Positions 3,837 to 40,003 of a stretch of DNA of 41,177 bases are shown piece after piece. A program made the translations under genes and the position numbers. Numbering within the stretch: position 1 is the stretch's first letter; every line of letters begins with the position of its first letter. Source of the DNA: a virus (lineage: Duplodnaviria; Heunggongvirae; Uroviricota; Caudoviricetes); IMG/VR virus record IMGVR_UViG_643886067_000001, positions 1 through 41,177 of that record; one strand, 5' to 3'. The notes beneath the pieces are model-generated. The model saw nothing but the letters and a program-made list of their open reading frames with translations. It was not told the origin of the DNA and did no database searches.

Positions 3837-5498
3837 TTATATGAAAAAAACCTCATACGCTTTCTTTTTCGGTTCCGGATTCAGGGACATCAGGGACACC
3901 GCATTGAAGAGCGCCATCAGCGGGTCAATTTTTCCCCGTCCGCTGGCCTGTTTGGTAATAAGGATGGCGTTACCTTTAGGCTCCACCCGGGCATTGCCGA
4001 CACACCAGGCCATCAGGGGCTGGCCACCATGCACCAGTACCCCTTCAGCCAGTTTGCGCTCGGTGGTTTTGATGGCCCCGCCCAGCTTCCAGCCCTGGCT
4101 TATCCCCACCACAATTCCGTCGGGGATCCCGGCTTCCGCCAGTGAATCCAGAATCTGCCCCACCCCTGACGGGTCAATACCGATATGGTCCAGTAACTCA
4201 GCCTCATGAATGCGACGCACATATTCCGCCACTTCCGCCGTGTCATCCCCGACACGCCGGACAATGGTCATATCTCCACAGGCAACAAGATCCTGAAACC
4301 GGGACGCCTCGCTCTTCCGTCGGACCACCGCGGTTTCATGCGCCCAGGCATGGCCCCAGCCCAGCCATTCGCGGGTCTCCCGGTCACGCCCAATCACATA
4401 CATCCCCAGCAGATCATCCAGCCCTCCGCCGTCAATCCCCACCGTCACCACATCAGCACGACGCAGGATATCGTCCAGGCTGATACAACGGCCCTGCTCT
4501 TCCCAGAAATCAGCCCCCGCCCAGCGGTCAGAGCGCAGGGCAAGACCAATTTCCACATTGGCGTGTTTTGACATGAACCCCCGGAATGTCTCTTCACCGG
4601 CTTCCCGGGCTTTACGGTACTCCCGGTACAGAAAGGCCTCATCCACTGAATAGCCGAGATTCGGATTGACCATGGCGAGGTTTTCCATCAGCAGGTGAGC
4701 CCCGCTTTCCACCATTTCAGGAGGGTGTTCAAATATCACCGGCAGAAAGTGCGGATCATGAATTTTGCCGTCGCGCACATCCCGGGCGTACTGCAGTTTC
4801 TGTCTGAACACCCCGGCAGGCGGTTCATTCGACTGGGTGGTCGTATACACCACAAACCCTTCCGGGCGGGAGGCAAGGCCGCCTATGGCTTCACGTAACA
4901 TGTCCTCCGCCTTGCACTGCTTGCCAAACAGCCACAACTCATCAATCAGCGTACCCACGGACTTGATACCGGACACCGTATTCGGATCGGCAGCCACCAC
5001 CTTCAGGGTGGTGTCTGTCACCCTGTGGGTGATGGTCCGGATATGGGTCTGTACCTGGCAGAGGTCATCCAGATCATCGTCACGTCGTACCATATCCCGG
5101 GCAGGGTTGAAGGCGTTGGCCGCCACCTCCACAGTCGGGGCCAGAATCGTGTAACCCGCCGCCTGCCGCCAGTTCAGTAACAGTGCAGTCATCATGATCC
5201 CCGCGGCCAGCGTGGACTTCGAGTTTTTCTTGGGGATAAGGATAAAAACTTCCTTGATATGGCGTACACCGGTCTGCGCATCGTAGGAGCCAAACAGGGC
5301 CGCCACCAGGTCAAACACCCACGGTGCACAGGACTCCCCGAACGTCGGGCTACCAGGTGCATCCACAATCCGCAGTTGTTTAAAAATCGCCAGGGCATGT
5401 GCGGCCTCGTCCGGATAAATCGGATCCGGAATAATCGACAGCCCCTTTTTCAGGCGCTCTGCCCAGTCCGGGCAGGCTGTGCTCCATACAGGTATCAT
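3837..5498 (-). CDS. Terminase large subunit
   Basis: 553 aa; N-terminal ATPase-like region and C-terminal RNaseH-like nuclease region (VGIDGGGLDD...); ATGA overlap with upstream small subunit. Confidence 0.85.
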   Translation of the reverse strand: MIPVWSTACPDWAERLKKGLSIIPDPIYPDEAAHALAIFKQLRIVDAPGSPTFGESCAPWVFDLVAALFGSYDAQTGVRHIKEVFILIPKKNSKSTLAAGIMMTALLLNWRQAAGYTILAPTVEVAANAFNPARDMVRRDDDLDDLCQVQTHIRTITHRVTDTTLKVVAADPNTVSGIKSVGTLIDELWLFGKQCKAEDMLREAIGGLASRPEGFVVYTTTQSNEPPAGVFRQKLQYARDVRDGKIHDPHFLPVIFEHPPEMVESGAHLLMENLAMVNPNLGYSVDEAFLYREYRKAREAGEETFRGFMSKHANVEIGLALRSDRWAGADFWEEQGRCISLDDILRRADVVTVGIDGGGLDDLLGMYVIGRDRETREWLGWGHAWAHETAVVRRKSEASRFQDLVACGDMTIVRRVGDDTAEVAEYVRRIHEAELLDHIGIDPSGVGQILDSLAEAGIPDGIVVGISQGWKLGGAIKTTERKLAEGVLVHGGQPLMAWCVGNARVEPKGNAILITKQASGRGKIDPLMALFNAVSLMSLNPEPKKKAYEVFFI

Positions 5499-9879: not shown

Positions 9880-10014
9880 AATTTCTTACCGTTATGGTTG
9901 ACAATGAGAACTGTTTTCATTTAAAAAACCGATATACGAAAGCATCTTTTCTTTACATTCTCCATTGGAATTACCTCCGCCAGCGTCCATTCCTGCCGCT
10001 GGCGGCTTTTTTTA

Positions 10015-11976
10015 TCATGCCGCGATGTCCGCGTTGTTCACTTCCACCTTCACACTGTCAATCAGCAGCGTATATGTCGCCGCCTTTGATATGCCTGTCA
10101 GTTGCAGTTTGTCCGCCGCCCCTGATGCCGGAGATTTCACCAGTGTGAACGGCGTCCCCCGTTTCTCATCCAGTACCGGCGTCACCTGAATGCTGTTGTT
10201 TCCGGCAAACTCAAAAGCCAGTGTGTGCCATCCGTTATCAAAGACCCCGAACGTATCCAGCTTCGCATTCGGCTTCTTGTGGTGCATCGCGTTCAGGTTC
10301 GTCGCATCCGTCTGCAGGAAGAAGGACATCAGCATGTCGTTGCCTTCCTCTGCCAGCGTCACTCCCTCCGGCAGGGACGACAACTGCCAGTAAATGCCCA
10401 GGGCAAACTGATTCGGCACCAGTGAACCCGGCAACTTAAACCGTACGCTCACACGTCCCCCCTTCTTCAGTAACTCCACTCCCTGTCCGGCTGCATCATG
10501 CTCCAGAAACCAGATGTGGTTTTCCGGTTTATTCAGTTGCAGGGCCTTACCTCCCGTAGCCCCCGCATCACTGACCACCGCTTCAGCAATGTTTTTGTTA
10601 ACATTGTCTCCGCTCGCCGGTTTGTGATAATAGCGCCAGCCCTGTGATGCCAGGTCTTCGCCGGACGCCAGCAGACTCATCAGGGTTCGGTTACTGACCG
10701 GGGCTTCCGGCTCTCTCTCCGTACCTTCACCGGAAGGTCCGGTGGGCTTCACCGTATCAGGCTGTTTTCCGGTAATGAATTCAGCGTTTCTCCCGGCATG
10801 CACAAGAATCGCCGTTGCCAGACGGTCGGAAATAATCCCACGACGTGCCCATGATCCAAAATGCGTTTTACGGTCAGCCGTCGTCCAGGTTTTGGCGTCC
10901 GTTCGACCACCGGCTCCGTAATACCCAATATCCGCAACATCCGGATCTTCTGACGGCTCGTTGGTACCCACATTTCGCCCGTTTTCATCCGTCATAAACG
11001 GCACAAAGAAGATTTTTTTTGCGGATTTCGTCTTGTATGCACCATACACCGCATCGTATTGCGAAGAATAAGTCTGCTTCCAGTAGTAGGTCGTGTCGCC
11101 ACAAATCCAGGGAACCGATGACGGAGAGCCCCCGAGACACTGACCTCCGAATTCCGACAGGTCAGAACGATATTTTTCCACCATGGAATCAAACAGCCCC
11201 GGCTGAGTGGCGTATGCACCCTGTTTCAAATCAAACTCGCCCTGCATCCAGACCACTGCAAGCAGAATATTTTTAGGGTTGGCCTTCAGTGCGGCCTGAG
11301 TACGGGTAAGCAGGTCCTTGTACAGTGGCTTATCTACACCCCAGCGTGCCGAGGTCTCGCTTGCGCCGGTGGATTCGCTGAAGGTACCTTCATCGCCCGC
11401 CAAAAATGCAGAACCACCACGGCAGCACGGAACCAGAAGAATACCGGCATTCGCCGGAATAAACGGCAACAATTTCTTCGCGATATGTAATCCCTGCCCC
11501 ACGCATCCATACTGAGCTGCGCTGGCTTTCGGGTGTGAAAACTTACTCAAATCCTGAACATCATGCAGGCAGTGGTCCGCAGGAATAATGTCATTGTAGT
11601 TACAGGACGCACCACCCGGCGTGACAGTGCTGCGACGCGCCAGCTGTTTAATACGCGGGTCCGGACGGTCATATGTCTCCGGCAGCGGAAGCCCTTCACC
11701 ATACGCCATACCGTTTGACTGCCCGGCCAGGGCAACAACAAAGTAATACTCCGGGTTGCTGGTGGTGCTGATAACTGCGCCTTCTCCATCCGACGGCTTC
11801 ACCACCACAGGTGTGGTGACATCACCTTCCGCCGCAATGGCCTGCATCAGGGTATAAGGCGTGATGGCCACCGGACTGCCAAATGGCTGCCACCCCTCCT
11901 TCAGTTTTTGTGTCAGTCGTTTCGCAAGGTCTGACGGCGATGCCGCCCTGACCACGTCATAGTGTTTAAATGCCAT
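10015..11976 (-). CDS. nanS-p: Prophage sialate O-acetylesterase NanS-p (DUF1737 + SGNH/SASA hydrolase + C-terminal domain)
   Basis: 653 aa; N-terminal DUF1737-like MAFKHYDVVRAASPSDLAKRL; SGNH motif ALAGQSNGMAYGEG; strong GGAGG site; sits between the tRNAs and the lysis cassette as in EHEC prophages. Confidence 0.85.
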   Translation of the reverse strand: MAFKHYDVVRAASPSDLAKRLTQKLKEGWQPFGSPVAITPYTLMQAIAAEGDVTTPVVVKPSDGEGAVISTTSNPEYYFVVALAGQSNGMAYGEGLPLPETYDRPDPRIKQLARRSTVTPGGASCNYNDIIPADHCLHDVQDLSKFSHPKASAAQYGCVGQGLHIAKKLLPFIPANAGILLVPCCRGGSAFLAGDEGTFSESTGASETSARWGVDKPLYKDLLTRTQAALKANPKNILLAVVWMQGEFDLKQGAYATQPGLFDSMVEKYRSDLSEFGGQCLGGSPSSVPWICGDTTYYWKQTYSSQYDAVYGAYKTKSAKKIFFVPFMTDENGRNVGTNEPSEDPDVADIGYYGAGGRTDAKTWTTADRKTHFGSWARRGIISDRLATAILVHAGRNAEFITGKQPDTVKPTGPSGEGTEREPEAPVSNRTLMSLLASGEDLASQGWRYYHKPASGDNVNKNIAEAVVSDAGATGGKALQLNKPENHIWFLEHDAAGQGVELLKKGGRVSVRFKLPGSLVPNQFALGIYWQLSSLPEGVTLAEEGNDMLMSFFLQTDATNLNAMHHKKPNAKLDTFGVFDNGWHTLAFEFAGNNSIQVTPVLDEKRGTPFTLVKSPASGAADKLQLTGISKAATYTLLIDSVKVEVNNADIAA

Positions 11977-12158
11977 GAATCCTCCCGGCCGGGATAATAT
12001 TGTGAGTAAAATAAGGAGCGGGCTGAAGTCCGGAAGTTACAGGACAATGGCAGAAGAGAGACGACAGCCCGCAATTCGAAAAAGACCGCGCAGTTGCGCA
12101 GCCTTATGAATTCTGGTTAAAATCCATTCGATTATAAAAATGTATATCTCATGCTGTT

Positions 12159-12183
12159 GCCCGAACCCACTCGGGCTTTTTTT
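12159..12183 (+). terminator. Plus-strand intrinsic terminator-like hairpin
   Basis: GCCCGA-acccac-TCGGGC followed by TTTTTTT. Confidence 0.4.
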
Positions 12184-12184
12184 G

Positions 12185-12440
12185 CCCACAAGAAAGCCCC
12201 TCCGGAGAGGGGCTAAAGCCGCGTATCTGTATCATCATGCACATGGTGCCGGGTGCCTCCCGGTGAGTTCAGCCCGGTGCCACTAAACCCGCGTCATTCT
12301 CGTTTTGATAATCAGAGATTATACCGTCACCAGTCGCCCCTCCGCTCAGGGGGATTCACCATGCGAAATTTTTTTAACAAATGCCCAGTCTGACAGGCAA
12401 CTGTCAACTTACTGAATTGTGAGCAACATAGCATTTAACG
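12185..12440. repeat. Structured non-coding direct repeat, copy A
   Basis: Shares with copy B: hairpin AGCCCCTC-cgga-GAGGGGCT, GCATGGTGCCGGGTGCCTCCCGGTGAGTTCAG, CCCCTCCGC(T/A)CAGGGGGATTCACCATGC, CAAC(T/A)GTCAAC, CTGAATTGTGAG. Confidence 0.5.
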
Positions 12441-12674
12441 GGGAACCTGTTTTCTGCAGTAAAAAGGCCCACCGGAGCGGATGGGCCTGGAAGGATAGCG
12501 GTCATGTGATGCCGGTTTCCCGGTAACTCAGCACCGGTATCTGAGTCAACGTTTTCTCTACTGGGTCATTTCCGATACGCCCTGCCTGCTGACAGGCTTT
12601 CATCACATCTGAAAATATAGCACCCTGACTGATACTGTAGTACCTAAGGTTCCAGAAACTGTGATGTATCCGGC

Positions 12675-12920
12675 ACAGAAAAGCCCCTCCGGAGAGGGGC
12701 TGGAGAGTGGCACTATGTGCCATTGCATGGTGCCGGGTGCCTCCCGGTGAGTTCAGTATCAGCACCTGAACCCGCACAGAAAGGATAAGGGTCGGTGACA
12801 AAACACCAGTTGCTGATTGCCCCTCCGCACAGGGGGATTCACCATGCCAGTTTCTTTTAACAAACTCCCCGCAAACCAGACAACAGTCAACCGCCTGAAT
12901 TGTGAGGTATTTAAAAATTT
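12675..12920. repeat. Structured non-coding direct repeat, copy B
   Basis: Second copy of the same blocks ~490 bp from copy A; sequence between the conserved blocks diverges. Confidence 0.5.
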
Positions 12921-12941
12921 CAACGGGTAACTGATACCCTG

Positions 12942-13094
12942 CTAATCGCCTGATGCTTTCTTTTTCAGCAACGGGAAAGCAACAACCACCACACCCGCCA
13001 CCAGCACACCGTCAGCCAGCACTGACATTATCCGGCTGCTGAAGTCCACCATCACCACCAGAAACAGCAGGAGCGCAACCACAGCCAGACGCAT
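12942..13094 (-). CDS. Putative 50-aa hydrophobic membrane peptide
   Basis: MRLAVVALLLFLVVMVDFSSRIMSVLADGVLVAGVVVVAFPLLKKKASGD; ATG 8 nt after the TerB-like stop; no clear Shine-Dalgarno. Not in ORF track. Confidence 0.3.
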   Translation of the reverse strand: MRLAVVALLLFLVVMVDFSSRIMSVLADGVLVAGVVVVAFPLLKKKASGD

Positions 13095-13102
13095 TTTTAC
13101 CG

Positions 13103-13534
13103 TCACAGATGATTCTCCAGACGAAGGCCCAGAACACCGGCAATCTCTTCCAGCACCTTGCGCTCTTCCGGCTCTATTTCGCCGTCTGCTTCGGCAATGG
13201 CCACCGCCACATCCAGCACGTCTTCCGCTTCACGCGTATCGTGTTTCACATCCTCGATCTCACGTAACGCCGCACGACGACCAATTTTAAAGTTCGTATC
13301 CAGCTGACCGATAATGGTTGCGCTAATCGCATTAATTTCTGACGTAAACGCGGACAAGGTGGGCTGGTTACGTAATACCTGTTCGATCTTCGCTTTCTCG
13401 GAAGCCTCACATTCACCATCGGCATAAGCCACCAGGTATGCAGCGTTAATCACTGCCTGTGCCAGATCGCGTTTTTCAAACTTTTTAATTTCCGCAGACG
13501 CTCTGCGGGTTTTCTTTTTGAAGATTCCAAGCAT
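13103..13534 (-). CDS. TerB-like (tellurite-resistance TerB fold) protein
   Basis: 143 aa from ATG 13534 (AGGA upstream); two ADGE-containing repeats (AYADGECEASEKAKIEQVL, AEADGEIEPEERKVLEEIA). Confidence 0.6.
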   Translation of the reverse strand: MLGIFKKKTRRASAEIKKFEKRDLAQAVINAAYLVAYADGECEASEKAKIEQVLRNQPTLSAFTSEINAISATIIGQLDTNFKIGRRAALREIEDVKHDTREAEDVLDVAVAIAEADGEIEPEERKVLEEIAGVLGLRLENHL

Positions 13535-13704
13535 TGTGACGTTCCTTTGGGTGGGTGAGCCAACGCCCGGGAGCGATCTGCCCACAGAGAAAGTCACACT
13601 GACCACTCCGTAAGCTCACCCCCGAAAGGCTCTGTGGTTGATATGCGCCGGGCGTGGCGCGGATACAAAAAAGGCCCGCAAAAGCGAGCCGGGAAAAATA
13701 AGTC

Positions 13705-13781
13705 TGGCGCGTTGTACTGGATTCGAACCAGTGACCGATTGCTTAGAAGGCAATTGCTCTGTCCGGCTGAGCTAACAACGC
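13705..13781 (-). tRNA. argO: tRNA-Arg (anticodon UCU)
   Basis: 77 nt; hand-folded cloverleaf GCGTTGT-TA-GCTC...GAGC-A-ATTGC-CTTCTAA-GCAAT-...-TTCGAAT-...-ACAACGC-G-CCA. Confidence 0.8.
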
Positions 13782-13795
13782 AGAATGCCGATAAA

Positions 13796-13872
13796 TGGAC
13801 CGCCATCGAGGACTCGAACCCCGCGCAACCAGCTTCGAAGGCTGGCGCTCTATCCCGATGAGCTAATGGCGG
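13796..13872 (-). tRNA. argN: tRNA-Arg (anticodon UCG)
   Basis: 77 nt; cloverleaf with anticodon loop CTTCGAA, T-loop TTCGAGT, 3' CCA; unusual C1-G72 acceptor pair. Confidence 0.7.
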
Positions 13873-13881
13873 TATGTGATA

Positions 13882-13957
13882 TGGTGGCCCTTGCTGGATT
13901 TGAACCAGCGACCTGGCGATTATGAGTCGCTCGCTCTCACCACTGAGCTAAAGGGCC
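13882..13957 (-). tRNA. ileZ: tRNA-Ile2 (anticodon CAU, lysidine type; a scanner would call Met)
   Basis: 76 nt; near-identical in pattern to E. coli ileX (GGCCCTTTAGCTCAGTGGT...CTCATAA...TTCAAAT...GGGCCACCA). Confidence 0.8.
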
Positions 13958-13997: not shown

Positions 13998-15056
13998 TCA
14001 TCCGTTCTGACTGGCTAAATCCTGAACTTCCCTGACCGTCTGTTCAAAACGTTCAGTCTCCAGCTCAACGCCTGTAGCACGACGCCCCAGCGCCATCGCG
14101 GCTTTGACTGTCGAACCCGACCCCATGAAGAAATCTGCAACCAGGTCACCCGGACGACTGCTCGCACTGATTATCTGCTGCAGCATTTCTGCCGGTTTTT
14201 CGCACGGATGTTTCCCGGGATAGTACTGCACCGGTTTATGCGTCCACACATCCGTGTACGGCACCTGCGCCGTCACGCCAAAATACCGCCGCAGATGCTT
14301 ATATTCACTCTGCAGTTCCGCATACTGCCGGTTCAGTGAAGTATACGTCTCCAGCAGCTGGTGGTGGGGCTTTTCCAGTTCACCCCGCTGATGCTTCTCT
14401 TCTGCCACCCGGGCAAACAGCGCCTGTAATTTCAGATAATCACTTTCGTTCGGCAGCTGCCACTGACTGGCACTGAACCAGTGCGACACCATGTTTTTCT
14501 TTCCTGTGGCATCCACTATCTGTTTTGCCGTTATCCCCAGGGCAGCGCGCGCATCACGAAAGTAAGCAATCAGCGGGGCCATCACATGCTGTTTCAGTGC
14601 CCTGCCCTTCGCCTCATACCCGGCATCTTTCGGACGATACGGCCCCTGATAATGTTCCGCGAACAGAATGCGCTCTGTGGCGGGGAAATACGCCCGCAGG
14701 CTTTCCTTGTTGCACCCGTTCCAGCGTCCGGACGGCTTTGCCCAGATAATATGGTTCAGCACACTGAAGCGTTCACGCATCATGATTTCGATATCAGATG
14801 CCAGGCGATGACCACAGAACAGGTAAAGACTTCCGGCAGGTTTCAGCACCCGCCAGAACTGCGCCAGACACTGGTCCAGCCACTTCAGGTAATCATCGTC
14901 GCCCTTCCACTGGTTATCCCAGCCCTCAGGCTTCACTTTAAAGTACGGCGGGTCCGTGACTATCAGGTCAACAGAATTTTCGGGTAACGACCGGATAAAT
15001 TCCAGGCAGTCGGCGTTGATTAACTCACAACTGGATATTTTTACAGTATTAAGCAT
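13998..15056 (-). CDS. Orphan DNA methyltransferase (N6-adenine/N4-cytosine class)
   Basis: 352 aa; motif IV TDPPYF near N-terminus and motif I FFMGSGST near C-terminus; no adjacent restriction endonuclease. Confidence 0.85.
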   Translation of the reverse strand: MLNTVKISSCELINADCLEFIRSLPENSVDLIVTDPPYFKVKPEGWDNQWKGDDDYLKWLDQCLAQFWRVLKPAGSLYLFCGHRLASDIEIMMRERFSVLNHIIWAKPSGRWNGCNKESLRAYFPATERILFAEHYQGPYRPKDAGYEAKGRALKQHVMAPLIAYFRDARAALGITAKQIVDATGKKNMVSHWFSASQWQLPNESDYLKLQALFARVAEEKHQRGELEKPHHQLLETYTSLNRQYAELQSEYKHLRRYFGVTAQVPYTDVWTHKPVQYYPGKHPCEKPAEMLQQIISASSRPGDLVADFFMGSGSTVKAAMALGRRATGVELETERFEQTVREVQDLASQNG

Positions 15057-15206
15057 GGATCATTAAACCTGTCTCTGATAGGCTCATTCTGCTTTTGCGC
15101 AAAGCAGTGGGCCTGAGGTTTGCTTGTGATCCAGACGCATGAGCAGATGGCTGGTGAGTGCCCCTAACACCCACCAGCCGCCCATTTACCACAAATAAAA
15201 AAGCCT

Positions 15207-15404
15207 TCAGGACTGAAGGCGTCTGTAACAACCAAACTGATAGTCTGCCAGACCCGCCATAACCAGCTGGGTCAGTATTAACTGGCAGCGTTCGCGTGAA
15301 AGGTAAGTATTCTGCGCTATCTCCCCGACTGTCGCCGGTTCGGTAACGCTTAATTCATTAAACACCACTCTGGCGGTTTCTGTCATATCCTGCTGTTTTA
15401 GCAT
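15207..15404 (-). CDS. Hypothetical small protein
   Basis: 65 aa from ATG 15404 (AAGGGA upstream). Confidence 0.35.
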   Translation of the reverse strand: MLKQQDMTETARVVFNELSVTEPATVGEIAQNTYLSRERCQLILTQLVMAGLADYQFGCYRRLQS

Positions 15405-15519: not shown

Positions 15520-15548
15520 CAGTCATAAAAAACCCGCCAGGCGGCGGG
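15520..15548 (-). terminator. Intrinsic terminator downstream of Q (candidate tR')
   Basis: Minus strand CCCGCC-gcct-GGCGGG followed by TTTTTTAT, ~80 nt after Q stop. Confidence 0.45.
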
Positions 15549-15630: not shown

Positions 15631-16452
15631 CTATCGCGTTACCCTCTTTAACTGCCGCTCCGCCCATGCCTCTTCAATGTCAAACCGAACCACCAACGTA
15701 TCGTAAAAGCGTTTCACTGATTTTTTCCACGTATCAAGCGTGATAGCACTCGTCACTTTGCATATGGCATTAAATGCCTCCGTTGATGGCAGCCTTTCAC
15801 AGCCACGACCACCACAACGCTGGCAATCTCTGATAACAGGCATACCACGTTTTACCGACTCTTCACGATGAATGGCGACACCACGCCCACGGCAATCCTT
15901 ACAGGCGGTGGAAACCTCACCCTTTCCGCCACACTCCGGACAGGCAACTTTTACCACCTCCCTGACTTTTTTCCATTCTTCCCAGTAAGACGGATACACG
16001 CCTTTTGTGCACTTTGCCCACACTGGTGGCTTACCATCCGGATACTGGATCTTGTTTGTAAAAACCTCGCTTTCAATAAATTTTTTTCCGTGACAGCAGG
16101 GGCACTGTTTTTTGCTCGCCGCGCTACGGGCATAATCTTCAAACGCATACGAAGCCATAATGCGCATCACTACCGGTTTTATTTCTGCCGGAAGTTTTCT
16201 CAACGCCGCCACACGATCGCACCGACTGAGTGCATAATCTGCCAGTAATTCTGTTGCCCGCGCCCTGTCATTCATACTGATGCCCATTTTCCCCAGGAAC
16301 GCAGAAAACCCCATCTCAGCCCGATTCTGTGTCATGCCCTGCGCGGCCATCACATCAGTGATACTCAGCGCATCTTTTGACGTTGAGGCCGATGCATCGG
16401 TCAGGCCAGGGGATTTTGGGGAGTAGTATTTCGGTAAATCTTCCAGTTTCAT
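15631..16452 (-). CDS. Late-gene antiterminator Q-like protein (zinc-ribbon type)
   Basis: 273 aa with CPCCHG, CPECGG, CKDCRG, CQRCGG motifs; ATG overlaps rusA stop (ATGA); position between nin genes and late region; resembles QuuQ-type Q proteins (from memory). Confidence 0.65.
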   Translation of the reverse strand: MKLEDLPKYYSPKSPGLTDASASTSKDALSITDVMAAQGMTQNRAEMGFSAFLGKMGISMNDRARATELLADYALSRCDRVAALRKLPAEIKPVVMRIMASYAFEDYARSAASKKQCPCCHGKKFIESEVFTNKIQYPDGKPPVWAKCTKGVYPSYWEEWKKVREVVKVACPECGGKGEVSTACKDCRGRGVAIHREESVKRGMPVIRDCQRCGGRGCERLPSTEAFNAICKVTSAITLDTWKKSVKRFYDTLVVRFDIEEAWAERQLKRVTR

Positions 16453-20446: not shown

Positions 20447-20602
20447 TTACTCCTCAGGTTCGTAAGCTGTGAAGACAGCGACCTCCGTCTGGCCGGTTCG
20501 GATTCGTACCTCGCAGAGGTCTTTCCTCGTTACCAGTGCCGTCACAATGACGGTTAAACAGATGACGATCAGGGCGATTAGCATCGCCTTTTGCTGCTTC
20601 AT
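20447..20602 (-). CDS. hok: Hok/Gef-family type I toxin
   Basis: 51 aa MKQQKAMLIALIVICLTVIVTALVTRKDLCEVRIRTGQTEVAVFTAYEPEE, near-identical in pattern to HokC/Gef; hairpin at ~20415-20440 after stop. Confidence 0.85.
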   Translation of the reverse strand: MKQQKAMLIALIVICLTVIVTALVTRKDLCEVRIRTGQTEVAVFTAYEPEE

Positions 20603-20813
20603 AGCCTGCTTCTCCTTGCCTTTCGGCACGTAAGAGGCTAACCTACGTGTGTAGAGCATAGATATGGCCTCAGATTAATGTTAAGCGTCTTGCCGGACGC
20701 GTAATGTTAACTGGGGCTTTTCTCTATCTGCCTTTTGGTGTTCATGCCTGAGACAGATAGCCTCAAGCACCCGCTGCAATTCTACTTAACTCTCCTTTTC
20801 CCGCAAACCGTTT

Positions 20814-29402: not shown

Positions 29403-29964
29403 TTCACCCTCCTGAGGGTTGGTGATTAAGGAGTTCTCCACGGGTGAGGTGGAGTGCGTGCGCCGGACACGGGTGAGCATCCGGCACTGACAGTTTACTG
29501 AAAGGATATTTCCCTGAAAAGTCAGACCATAACGCGAAAGCGCTCGGCGAGGTAGCTGGTTCATAGATAGCCTGTCGTTAAATTTTCGTCGACCGTGCGC
29601 TTCCGGTTGTGGCAATCCGCGAAATGGCGCGGCGGTAAGTATGGCGGGGTTATTCCTTCCCCCGTTGAGGACACCGGGTTGTCAGGTTGACCATACGCTT
29701 AAGTGACAACCCCGCTGCAACGCCCTCTGTTATCAATTTTCTGGTGACGTTTGGCGGTATCAGTTTTACTCCGTGACTGCTCTGCCGCCCTTTTTAAAGT
29801 GAATTTTGTGATGTGGTGAATGCGGCTGAGCGCACGCGGAACAGTTAAAACCAAAAACAGTGTTATGGGTGGATTCTCTGTATCCGGCGTTAATTGTTAA
29901 CTGGTTAACGTCACCTGGAGGCACCAGGCACCGCATCACAAAATTCATTGTTGAGGACGCGATA

Positions 29965-30153
29965 ATGGAAACGTTATTACCAAACGTTAATACGTCTGAA
30001 GGTTGTTTTGAAATTGGTGTCACTATCAGTAACCCTGTATTTACTGAAGATGCCATTAACAAGAGAAAACACGAACGGGAGTTATTAAATAAAATATGCA
30101 TTCTTTCAATGCTGGCCCGTTTACGTCCGATACAAAAAGGATGTGCACAATGA
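29965..30153 (+). CDS. Hypothetical small protein
   Basis: 62 aa from ATG 29965 (GAGGA 8 nt upstream). Confidence 0.35.
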   Translation: METLLPNVNTSEGCFEIGVTISNPVFTEDAINKRKHERELLNKICILSMLARLRPIQKGCAQ

Positions 30154-39150: not shown

Positions 39151-39341
39151 TAACTCAGTTTGTGGGCATGCTTCACTGAAACAGATAAAAGTTACATCAG
39201 AGTGCAGATTCAATTTTGCAGCATTCGTCACAAAATAAAAATCCAGCATTTTATGTCAGAATACCTCACATGATAATAAAACCTGTCCGGTTTTACTGCA
39301 TGGCCAGACATTATACAAAAGCAAATCCTGTAAACTCCATT

Positions 39342-39378
39342 CAGCCTCCTTGCTATCCGGTAACGGAGGCTGTTTTTT
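39342..39378 (+). terminator. Intrinsic terminator-like hairpin
   Basis: CAGCCTCC-ttgctatccggtaac-GGAGGCTG followed by TTTTTT. Confidence 0.4.
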
Positions 39379-39424
39379 CGTTACGCCTTTCCCCGGCAGC
39401 ATCAGTAGCAGTAATTTATAGATT

Positions 39425-40003
39425 CTACGAACTGAGACTGTCTGTCCGGGGAGAACATACGTAACCCGGCGCAAGGCTCCTGTCAATTACCTCCGGCCTC
39501 TGCTCCCTTGGTTGCCAGACAGAGTCTCTGACGACCATGCTTTCAGTGTCAGCGCCAGTGATATAAGACGGTAAATGGGGATGCGGACGATTTCCTGTAT
39601 CACGTCTGTTGGCGCTTAGCCTCAGAATATCCACCACCAGACGCTGACTGTCTGACCAAAACAGGCCGTTCAGTGCGATCACCTGCAATCCCGTTTCCAG
39701 CGCATACTTCAGTCGTTCACGGGGCGCTTTCACTTCCCGGGCAATTTGCTGCCATGGCGATGATGTATTTTCACTCCCAACCATCCGGCGAATACGATGA
39801 GACAGATGATACCGGAATATATCCGGCACACCAGAAAGACTGGCTTTCAGGCTGTACACGCAGCCAAACCGTTTATCGTTGAACACCACATTTTTCTGGC
39901 TGATATCCCATGCTTCCCGAAGTGTAACAATCAGCTGTGGCGTCCGGGTTAAAAGCAGACGAAAAGGCAGTTCAAAACTGGTGACGTAATCCACATTCAG
40001 CAA
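39425..40003 (-). CDS. Hypothetical protein, possibly distal fragment of a disrupted gene
   Basis: 192-aa ORF; out of frame with the ORF at 40236-40748; no family recognised. Confidence 0.3.
   Translation of the reverse strand: MLNVDYVTSFELPFRLLLTRTPQLIVTLREAWDISQKNVVFNDKRFGCVYSLKASLSGVPDIFRYHLSHRIRRMVGSENTSSPWQQIAREVKAPRERLKYALETGLQVIALNGLFWSDSQRLVVDILRLSANRRDTGNRPHPHLPSYITGADTESMVVRDSVWQPREQRPEVIDRSLAPGYVCSPRTDSLSS

Follow-up and report, generated by a model that had tools for sequence, protein, structure and literature searches.

The window analysed here is a stretch of viral DNA (Caudoviricetes) of 41,177 nucleotides (IMG/VR record IMGVR_UViG_643886067_000001, positions 1 to 41,177), and its interval 11977-13606 is, as we hold with good confidence, the moron slot with a flanking small RNA (sRNA) module of an stx-negative lambdoid prophage from extraintestinal Escherichia coli. 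An earlier note, made from the sequence alone, proposed that the late region has the layout of Stx prophages, with Q, terminator, methyltransferase, tRNAs, cargo, nanS-p and lysis genes in this order; this layout is confirmed on the minus strand (Table 1), and the features which the note named were located where it had placed them. The A/B toxin genes are indeed absent, tciA and tciB being the sole coding genes between the tRNAs and nanS-p. The tRNA trio (13957..13705) is the upstream border of the slot, a conserved nanS-p-type esterase closes it, and holin, lysozyme and spanin-type lysis genes follow beyond nanS-p on the same strand. The gap between tciB and nanS-p contains three tandem genes of one sRNA family, STnc100, since the element lying between two full-length copies (A and B) shares with them the fold, the model match, the alignment of the -10 element and the terminator. 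A short anti-sRNA gene is encoded on the plus strand next to copy B.

All parts of the interval belong to known families and the locus architecture is mostly published already, as Tree et al. 2014 described this type of locus in enterohaemorrhagic E. coli and further surveys followed in 2025-2026. New here are the diverged third gene without annotation, the tandem array as a common unit, the 5' end of the anti-sRNA and an STnc100-like scaffold beside DicF. Among 5426 complete E. coli genomes, a 1724-bp stretch of the locus is 100% identical in about 84 and covered to at least 80% in 90; the strains with the identical stretch are mostly human extraintestinal isolates (e.g., MCJCHV-1, M1/5 and O25:H4 strains).

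STnc100-type genes and the convergent anti-sRNA

In the Rfam comparison of the gap, both direct repeats were identified as full-length STnc100 (RF02076, gathering score (GA) 47 bits), and the guess of small RNAs made for them in the earlier note was thus correct, with a curated sRNA family matched far above threshold. Copy A scores 139.7 bits (E=1e-31) and copy B 165.5 bits (E=3e-38), both over model positions 1-206; with the covariance model R1, which was built from 11 family members with the middle element excluded and whose E-values are roughly calibrated, the scores are 169 and 158 bits, respectively. The two direct repeats of about 250 bp are real (blocks of 88 nt at 80%, 31 nt at 100% and 28 nt at 93% identity in the repeat search, a start-to-start spacing of 483-487, and a BLAST identity of 70% over 206 nt), but their number had to be corrected, as the family members in tandem are three, not two. 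The scaffold starts with GCAUGGUG at 12847 in copy A, where the conserved upstream part extends to about 12920, and at 12364 in copy B. The hairpins AGCCCCTC-TCCG-GAGGGGCT, which had been read as minus-strand terminators, are confirmed as such by a T-run on that strand only (12701..12682 in copy A and 12214..12195 in copy B). The fold of copy A has an energy of -76.8 kcal/mol (z=-3.9).

Ahead of the STnc100 scaffold is a conserved leader with CACAAUUCAG about 55 nt upstream, and copy B has an upstream extended -10 element (TGcTATGTT, 12433..12425). In the alignment with the stx2B-nanS-p gap of strain Sakai, copy B corresponds in position to EcOnc27, its homologue behind stx2B; the longer size of EcOnc27 would fit a start at CACAAUUCAG and a repeat unit of about 250 bp. 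The leader also contains CUCACAA (at 12410-12421 and 12892-12903 on the minus strand, and at about 5890 in the Sakai locus L004; L numbers label the fetched loci), a motif of PasD targets that is perfectly complementary to the PasD seed UUGUGAG and that at 7 nt may be there by chance.

The middle element is absent from all annotation. Against model R1 it gives a full-length match of 34.2 bits (E ~1e-6), its extended -10 element (TGcTATATT, 12622..12614) is aligned with TGcTATGTT of copy B, and it ends in a third minus-strand terminator (12488..12465). Its minimum free energy fold has the family architecture with all five helices: the closing helix AUGUGAUG/CAUCACAU (family counterpart GCAUGGUG/CACCAUGC) encloses three hairpins, with ACUCAG...CUGAGU where the family has GUUCAG...CUGAAC and CCGG-GAAA-CCGG where the family has CCGGG-AGGCA-CCCGG, while 3' of the closing helix the single-stranded GACCGCUAUCCUUCCA is followed by a strong terminator. 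A second known variant, 86% identical, keeps both promoter and terminator; this variant alone was returned from the phage collection that was searched, and an exact 39-mer of the element, sought in one genome per species, was present in Escherichia albertii alone. The middle element is best described as a diverged paralogue and, by Rfam's criterion, is not a member of the family; lying below the Rfam threshold, it is overlooked by every Rfam-based annotator.

When model R1 was run over all fetched loci, 102 matches were obtained, 48 of them distinct. In these 48 sequences, 98.8% of the cells are paired and changes on both sides occur in 23 of the 34 pairs, although the alignment is model-fitted and hence biased to structure; in slid controls, with the partners moved by 1-3 columns, pairing was 37-53%, and a separate MAFFT alignment with RNAalifold returned the same helices. 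The mean pairwise identity is 0.91 in the 5' scaffold and 0.83 in the 3' scaffold, 0.42 in the internal segment and 0.27 in the segment from the closing helix to the terminator. This last segment, about 16-30 nt long and single-stranded, falls into at least 10 unrelated classes in the sample, and in the window it reads AAUGGCACAUAGUGCCACUCUCC in copy A, GACCGCUAUCCUUCCA in the middle element and GCAUGAUGAUACAGAUACGCGGCUUU in copy B. The mapped seed of PasD occupies the same pre-terminator place (Pearl Mizrahi 2021), and in EcOnc27 the peak of Hfq crosslinking is in this segment, as is the probe used for Northern blots (Tree et al. 2014); by analogy, the hypervariable segment is probably the seed. 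A k-mer search for targets of the seeds inside the window matched each seed to its own antisense strand alone.

The plus-strand terminator which the earlier note placed at 12159-12183 is present (hairpin 12159..12176, T-run to 12183), and it is the 3' end of an anti-sRNA gene which that note overlooked. The gene has a -10 element TAAAAT at 12118..12123 and, 6-7 nt later, the start CGAU, as in AsxR and AgvB; on the strand opposite copy B it borders the 3' end of that gene, and it lies 153 nt upstream of nanS-p. It fits the family pattern of a conserved 3' region of about 42 nt with terminator and a variable 5' region of 14-18 nt in a total length of 51-60 nt. Its 3' part agrees without mismatch over 36 nt with the conserved 3' region of EcOnc03 (Tree et al. 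2014, supplement), and against RF02702 (AgvB) it scores 43.4 bits (GA 56). Position and orientation are those of AsxR in the Sakai prophage Sp5, whereas the 5' variable region CGAUUAUAAAAAUGUAU differs from CGAUUAUUAAAACGAGU of AsxR at 5 of 17 positions and is unlike those of AgvB and EcOnc03. Since these 17 nt differ from all characterised members, the anti-sRNA probably sponges a different core sRNA than they do. Pairing of the anti-sRNA, or of a PasC-like RNA, with the three putative seeds was within the range of shuffled sequences (best P=0.12).

Cargo genes, array distribution and other RNA genes

The ORF (open reading frame) at 13103-13534 was proposed as TerB-like with two ADGE motifs, and both are found in the translation (AYADGECE and AEADGEIE). 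TciA matches Pfam TerB (PF05099) with 60.2 bits (cut-off 24.4), and the closest solved structure is Klebsiella TerB (PDB 2jxu, E=4e-8, residues 13-137). The small hydrophobic ORF at 12942-13094 is tightly linked to it, as had been noted, and is a DUF3927 peptide (PF13064, 71.7 bits, cut-off 25, residues 5-51). The GTG start of tciB, which is the PGAP choice, shares bases with the stop codon of tciA (GTGA), a layout typical of translational coupling. The names tciA and tciB originate from phage P1, where they were given by homology to TerB, and in a literature search on tciA, tciB and DUF3927 this naming was the sole relevant result. A relative of TciA is encoded in 342 IMG/VR loci. Since a terminator precedes the pair and no sigma-70 promoter was recognisable by consensus scan on the minus strand, tciAB included, the pair would most likely be made from the Q-antiterminated late transcript.

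For the distribution of the array, the query was 12340-12760, which spans both junctions, with a coverage of at least 80% as the criterion. The three-gene array is present in 669 of the 5426 genomes and nearly the same number hold the middle element; because these counts almost match, about 12% of genomes have the array as a conserved unit. The common arrangement in 80 IMG/VR loci with tciA is tciA, tciB, one STnc100 and nanS-p, in many of them with an AgvB- or AsxR-like gene before nanS-p. The array also occurs with other cargo: in ATCC 11775 it stands directly after the tRNAs without tciAB, and in DA33137 it has a tciB remnant ahead and iraM behind. One IMG/VR contig (L007) carries a single copy with the 5' part from A and the 3' part from B, and this recombinant suggests that homologous recombination collapses or builds the array. 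Other mosaics are L044, with a unique interior and the B seed, and copy 1 of ATCC 11775, with another interior and the A seed. A description of the tandem array was not found in the literature that was searched.

The same junction shows further variation. In some tciAB loci (L044, L042, L046, L052, L057 and L058, at about 4870-5490) an AT-rich insert of about 630 bp lies between the single STnc100 and nanS-p; it apparently has an opposite-strand ORF and looks like a second moron at this junction, which is also where iraM is found in DA33137 (L085) and in PP5 of E2348/69 (L087). In many tciAB loci, namely L010-type loci (e.g., L010 4630-4822) and the locus of Escherichia phage JLK-2012 (L001), the 3' part of the scaffold is replaced by a long CU-rich tail (…CUAUCAUCAUUAUCCCUUUAUUUCC) that resembles the 3' region of PasD, and the anti-sRNA is absent, which suggests an STnc100-PasD continuum or recombinants. 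Many of the IMG/VR contigs of loci L007-L083 stop within a few hundred bases of tciB, inside or just past STnc100, consistent with assembly breaks at a multi-copy RNA gene.

Several other RNA genes were observed in the window. An STnc100-like structure at 29788-29997 (plus strand) lies directly 3' of DicF (29739-29790, plus strand) and extends into the region where dicB starts; model R1 gives it 41.5 bits (E ~1e-8) and Rfam 38.7 bits, below GA, and it has compensatory changes in the closing helix AUGUGGUG/CACCGCAU and in the CCUGG/CCAGG hairpin. The dicF-dicB spacer of K-12 Qin (L090 956-1124) matches the same model with 37.7 bits. At dicF-dicB a start codon, in place of a terminator, comes after the scaffold, and this scaffold is not mentioned by Zhu, Shabalina & Storz 2026. 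A PasA/PasC/Esr41-type sRNA gene at about 9895-10020 (plus strand) is convergent on the nanS-p 3' end; PasC and PasA of E2348/69 can be aligned with it at the -35 element TTGACA and at the terminator GCCAGCG...CGCTGGC-TTTTTTTAT, the Rfam Esr41 score is 23.9 bits, and PP2 of E2348/69 apparently has two such genes in tandem at the corresponding position. Also present are a sok antitoxin RNA at 20597-20772 (minus strand, 117 bits), implying a hok/sok module, and a match to the AS-pc02 antisense RNA at 39300-39481 (plus strand, 54.9 bits).

Table 1. Features of the late region and the slot, in the order of minus-strand transcription
Feature	Position	Strand	Basis or description
Q-type antiterminator	16452..15631	-	Pfam Antiterm 166 bits; PGAP 'antitermination protein'
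Intrinsic terminators, one on each side of a 65-aa ORF	15548..15533 and 15220..15203	-	Terminator scan
DNA methyltransferase	15056..13998	-	Between Q and the tRNAs
tRNA CAT (ileZ-type)	13882-13957	-	ARAGORN, Rfam; PGAP tRNA-Ile in an identical genome
tRNA Arg-TCG (argN-type)	13796-13872	-	ARAGORN, Rfam; PGAP tRNA-Arg in an identical genome
tRNA Arg-TCT (argO-type)	13705-13781	-	ARAGORN, Rfam; PGAP tRNA-Arg in an identical genome
Intrinsic terminator right after the last tRNA	13690..13673	-	Terminator scan; alignment with Sakai and L011
tciA	13534..13103	-	143-aa TerB-domain protein
tciB	13106 (GTG) or 13094 (ATG)..12942	-	54-aa or 50-aa DUF3927 peptide
Gap without annotated genes, 965 bp	tciB end to nanS-p		
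STnc100 copy A	12671..12920	-	Rfam match 12876..12671
Diverged third STnc100-like gene (middle element)	12456..12632	-	Between copies A and B
STnc100 copy B	12184..12440	-	Rfam match 12393..12184
AsxR/AgvB/EcOnc03-family anti-sRNA, about 55 nt	12129..12184	+	Convergent with copy B
nanS-p-type esterase	11976..10015	-	Pfam: DUF1737, SASA and DUF6645; conserved ORF

Proposed function and its alternatives

We propose that each of the three copies would be an independent trans-acting sRNA, presented by Hfq and pairing with host or phage mRNAs via its pre-terminator seed, so that three different seeds would widen the target range, while the anti-sRNA would sponge a core sRNA. Once the prophage is induced, nanS-p and the lysis genes would be reached by a Q-modified polymerase that passes the argO terminator as well as those of the three sRNA genes; in the lysogen, the slot terminators would also halt unmodified transcription ahead of the holin. 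The earlier note expected expression here on induction, which for the RNAs is not what would chiefly be expected, as homologues are abundant and Hfq-bound in uninduced lysogens and each copy has its own promoter-like extended -10 element and terminator. STnc100 copies are expressed in uninduced EDL933.

Several points weigh against this proposal. The functions of copies A and B, the middle element and the anti-sRNA are transferred wholly from homologues. The 5' ends are uncertain, as PasD2 starts at GCAUGG (about 170 nt) and EcOnc27 measures 235/247 nt, and the promoter-like elements are weak matches that the consensus scan did not return as sigma-70 promoters on the minus strand. The middle element reaches 30.1 bits against RF02076 (12632..12459, E=0.001-0.007), below GA, and with two sequence variants known its own covariation is thin. 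The anti-sRNA reaches 63.0 bits against RF02703 (AsxR), which is exactly the GA of 63. In RNAduplex, its 5' 30 nt paired with FnrS (P=0.50) and GcvB (P=0.63) at the level of shuffled sequences, though the AsxR-FnrS control also failed (P=0.24), so that the comparison had too little power; of the controls, AgvB-GcvB alone was above shuffles (P=0.02). For the cargo, PADLOC gave a partial match of TciA to PDC-S48 (14.9 bits, E=0.0025), which is no meaningful defence match, and no match of TciB to defence-system models; the defence-system reading of tciAB was rejected on this result.

It is possible, though we are doubtful of it, that the repeated structures act chiefly in cis, as a terminator stack or as elements of RNA processing and stability, with the RNAs as by-products; on this reading, which we regard with the same reserve throughout, the structures would shield the nanS-p and lysis genes of the lysogen against unmodified transcription and would set the 3' terminus of the cargo mRNA. 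Three serial terminators between the cargo and the esterase and holin, with one more after the tRNAs, speak for such a role, as does the fact that, irrespective of cargo, the structures keep a fixed place directly upstream of nanS-p across hundreds of loci, and so does the occurrence of the same scaffold within an mRNA between DicF and dicB (in the window and in K-12 Qin), where the start codon is next and a terminator is lacking. However, a single terminator would be enough for insulation, the homologues are discrete, abundant and Hfq-bound RNAs with reproducible target sets, and a variable pre-terminator segment on a conserved scaffold fits target-specifying seeds. Roles in cis and in trans may coexist.

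That the repeats are dispersed intergenic repeats similar to the repetitive extragenic palindromic (REP) or enterobacterial repetitive intergenic consensus (ERIC) type, or decaying scars of duplication without function, seems to us exceedingly improbable, even though genomes carry related sequence in a median of 2 places and in as many as 13-15, and though the single A/B recombinant of L007 shows that homologous recombination adds or removes the array. Those copies that were examined share one prophage slot and are not scattered among core genes, their helices show compensatory changes, they match a curated sRNA family with transcribed homologues, and the array is 100% conserved in about 84 genomes and present in 669; the ERIC/REP-type repeats which the earlier note had considered are, in fact, prophage sRNA genes whose homologues are transcribed. 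Very unlikely too is that the gap encodes small proteins, from the 99-aa ORF 12801..12502 or from ORFs starting at the AUG in GCAUGGUG or at CACCAUG. Several EDL933 STnc100 copies do have a ratio of ribosome footprint to RNA above 1, and GGGAGG stands 11 nt ahead of the AUG of CACCAUG, but both GGGAGG and this AUG are within conserved helices, while the candidate ORFs differ between copies A and B in sequence as well as length (11 aa in copy A against 28 aa in copy B from the 5' AUG) and the remaining ones stay open across the terminator. The gap of about 950 bp had been described as lacking a coding signal, with which our data agree: PGAP annotates nothing there in an identical genome, Pfam has no match for the five longest ORFs and the frame is not conserved between copies, so the coding reading was rejected.

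Returning to the trans-acting sRNAs, we tentatively suggest, as one possibility that we would not yet favour, that the STnc100 scaffold is a reusable phage RNA chassis, carried in tandem arrays with swappable seeds that, like the internal segments, recombine between copies, in which the middle element has its own target set and a scaffold function is shared with the dicF-dicB copy. If this were true, prophages would multiply their reach into host regulation by arrayed seeds, and the dicF-dicB copy would point to a shared role of the scaffold, for instance as a platform for protein binding or processing. About 950 bp that annotation pipelines leave blank in hundreds of genomes of extraintestinal pathogenic E. 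coli hold four RNA genes. The STnc100 copy downstream of stx2 is currently being tied to virulence gene expression and clinical outcome, and a natural array of three seeds, on a phage without toxin genes in strains of the ST131/ST1193 type, would offer a clean system for the scaffold role and for seed exchange.

Comparison with known systems

Sakai Sp5 has, in this order, the tRNA trio, stx2A, stx2B, an STnc100 gene (207.7 bits) that begins 75 nt beyond stx2B, AsxR (88 bits, on the other strand) and nanS-p (ECs1207), to which the esterase of the window is homologous, as it is to the SASA esterases of E2348/69. Comparison with this stx-flanking region, which the earlier note had suggested, places the homology of the window and Sp5 through argO, the terminator and about 25 nt more, followed by divergence until the ribosome-binding site AAAGGAAC, which stands in front of tciA and likewise in front of stx2A. 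Because this left junction and AAAGGAAC are common to both, tciAB lies exactly at the stx2AB position. The stx2AB slot of Sp5 thus has the same left flank (tRNA trio, terminator, ribosome-binding site) and the same right flank (STnc100, anti-sRNA, nanS-p), whereas the window lacks the toxin genes, has a Q of 273 aa against 144 aa, and has the methyltransferase and the 65-aa ORF between Q and the tRNAs. The view of the whole interval as cargo holds for tciA, tciB, repeat A and the middle element, which are extra compared with Sp5, but not for repeat B, the plus-strand anti-sRNA and the nanS-p leader, which are a conserved module downstream of stx2B in Sp5.

The cargo pair resembles tciAB of P1 and JLK-2012 and TerB of the ter operon in its TerB domain with paired acidic ADGE motifs and, next to it, a small DUF3927 membrane peptide; tciC and other ter genes, however, are lacking here. 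The DNA identity of the pair to tciA/tciB of JLK-2012 is 93.5%, and there the genes likewise lie between tRNAs and the same esterase, although in that phage it is Asn/Thr/Gly tRNAs that come first and the Q allele is another one.

On the RNA side, PasD2 of enteropathogenic E. coli E2348/69 occupies the same slot on the late strand, with a DUF3927 gene before and a SASA esterase after it. PasD1 and PasD2 share with the window copies the 5' start GCAUGGUGAAUCC...GGAGGGGC and the overall scaffold, but PasD2 scores 41 bits on RF02076, has lost the ACCGGGAGGCACCCGGC hairpin and has a UGUGAG seed that is absent from the window. PasD is Hfq-dependent, and PasD2 has targets mapped by ligating and sequencing interacting RNAs (RIL-seq) (Pearl Mizrahi 2021). 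Zhu, Shabalina & Storz 2026 give a common ancestor for PasD and STnc100, report that Pas sRNAs typically have TerB and esterase genes beside them, and describe multiple Pas copies as distal, not tandem.

A locus of this kind was described by Tree et al. 2014, who found convergent Hfq-bound sRNAs between the moron coding sequence and a conserved ORF in eight Sakai prophages, with anti-sRNAs conserved at the 3' end and variable at the 5' end, and with EcOnc27 as an Hfq-dependent RNA of about 235/247 nt. Over-expression of EcOnc27 raises fimZ and espA transcripts, and EcOnc27 variants are among the features that predict haemolytic uraemic syndrome. Copy B has the same position, orientation, helices and terminator type as EcOnc27/sRNA103 of Sp5/933W; EcOnc27, however, is one gene after stx2B with the pre-terminator segment AGUAUACAGAGAUUAGGCAUAUACCAA, whereas the window has three genes after tciB, and the segments of copies A and B are different from AGUAUACAGAGAUUAGGCAUAUACCAA.

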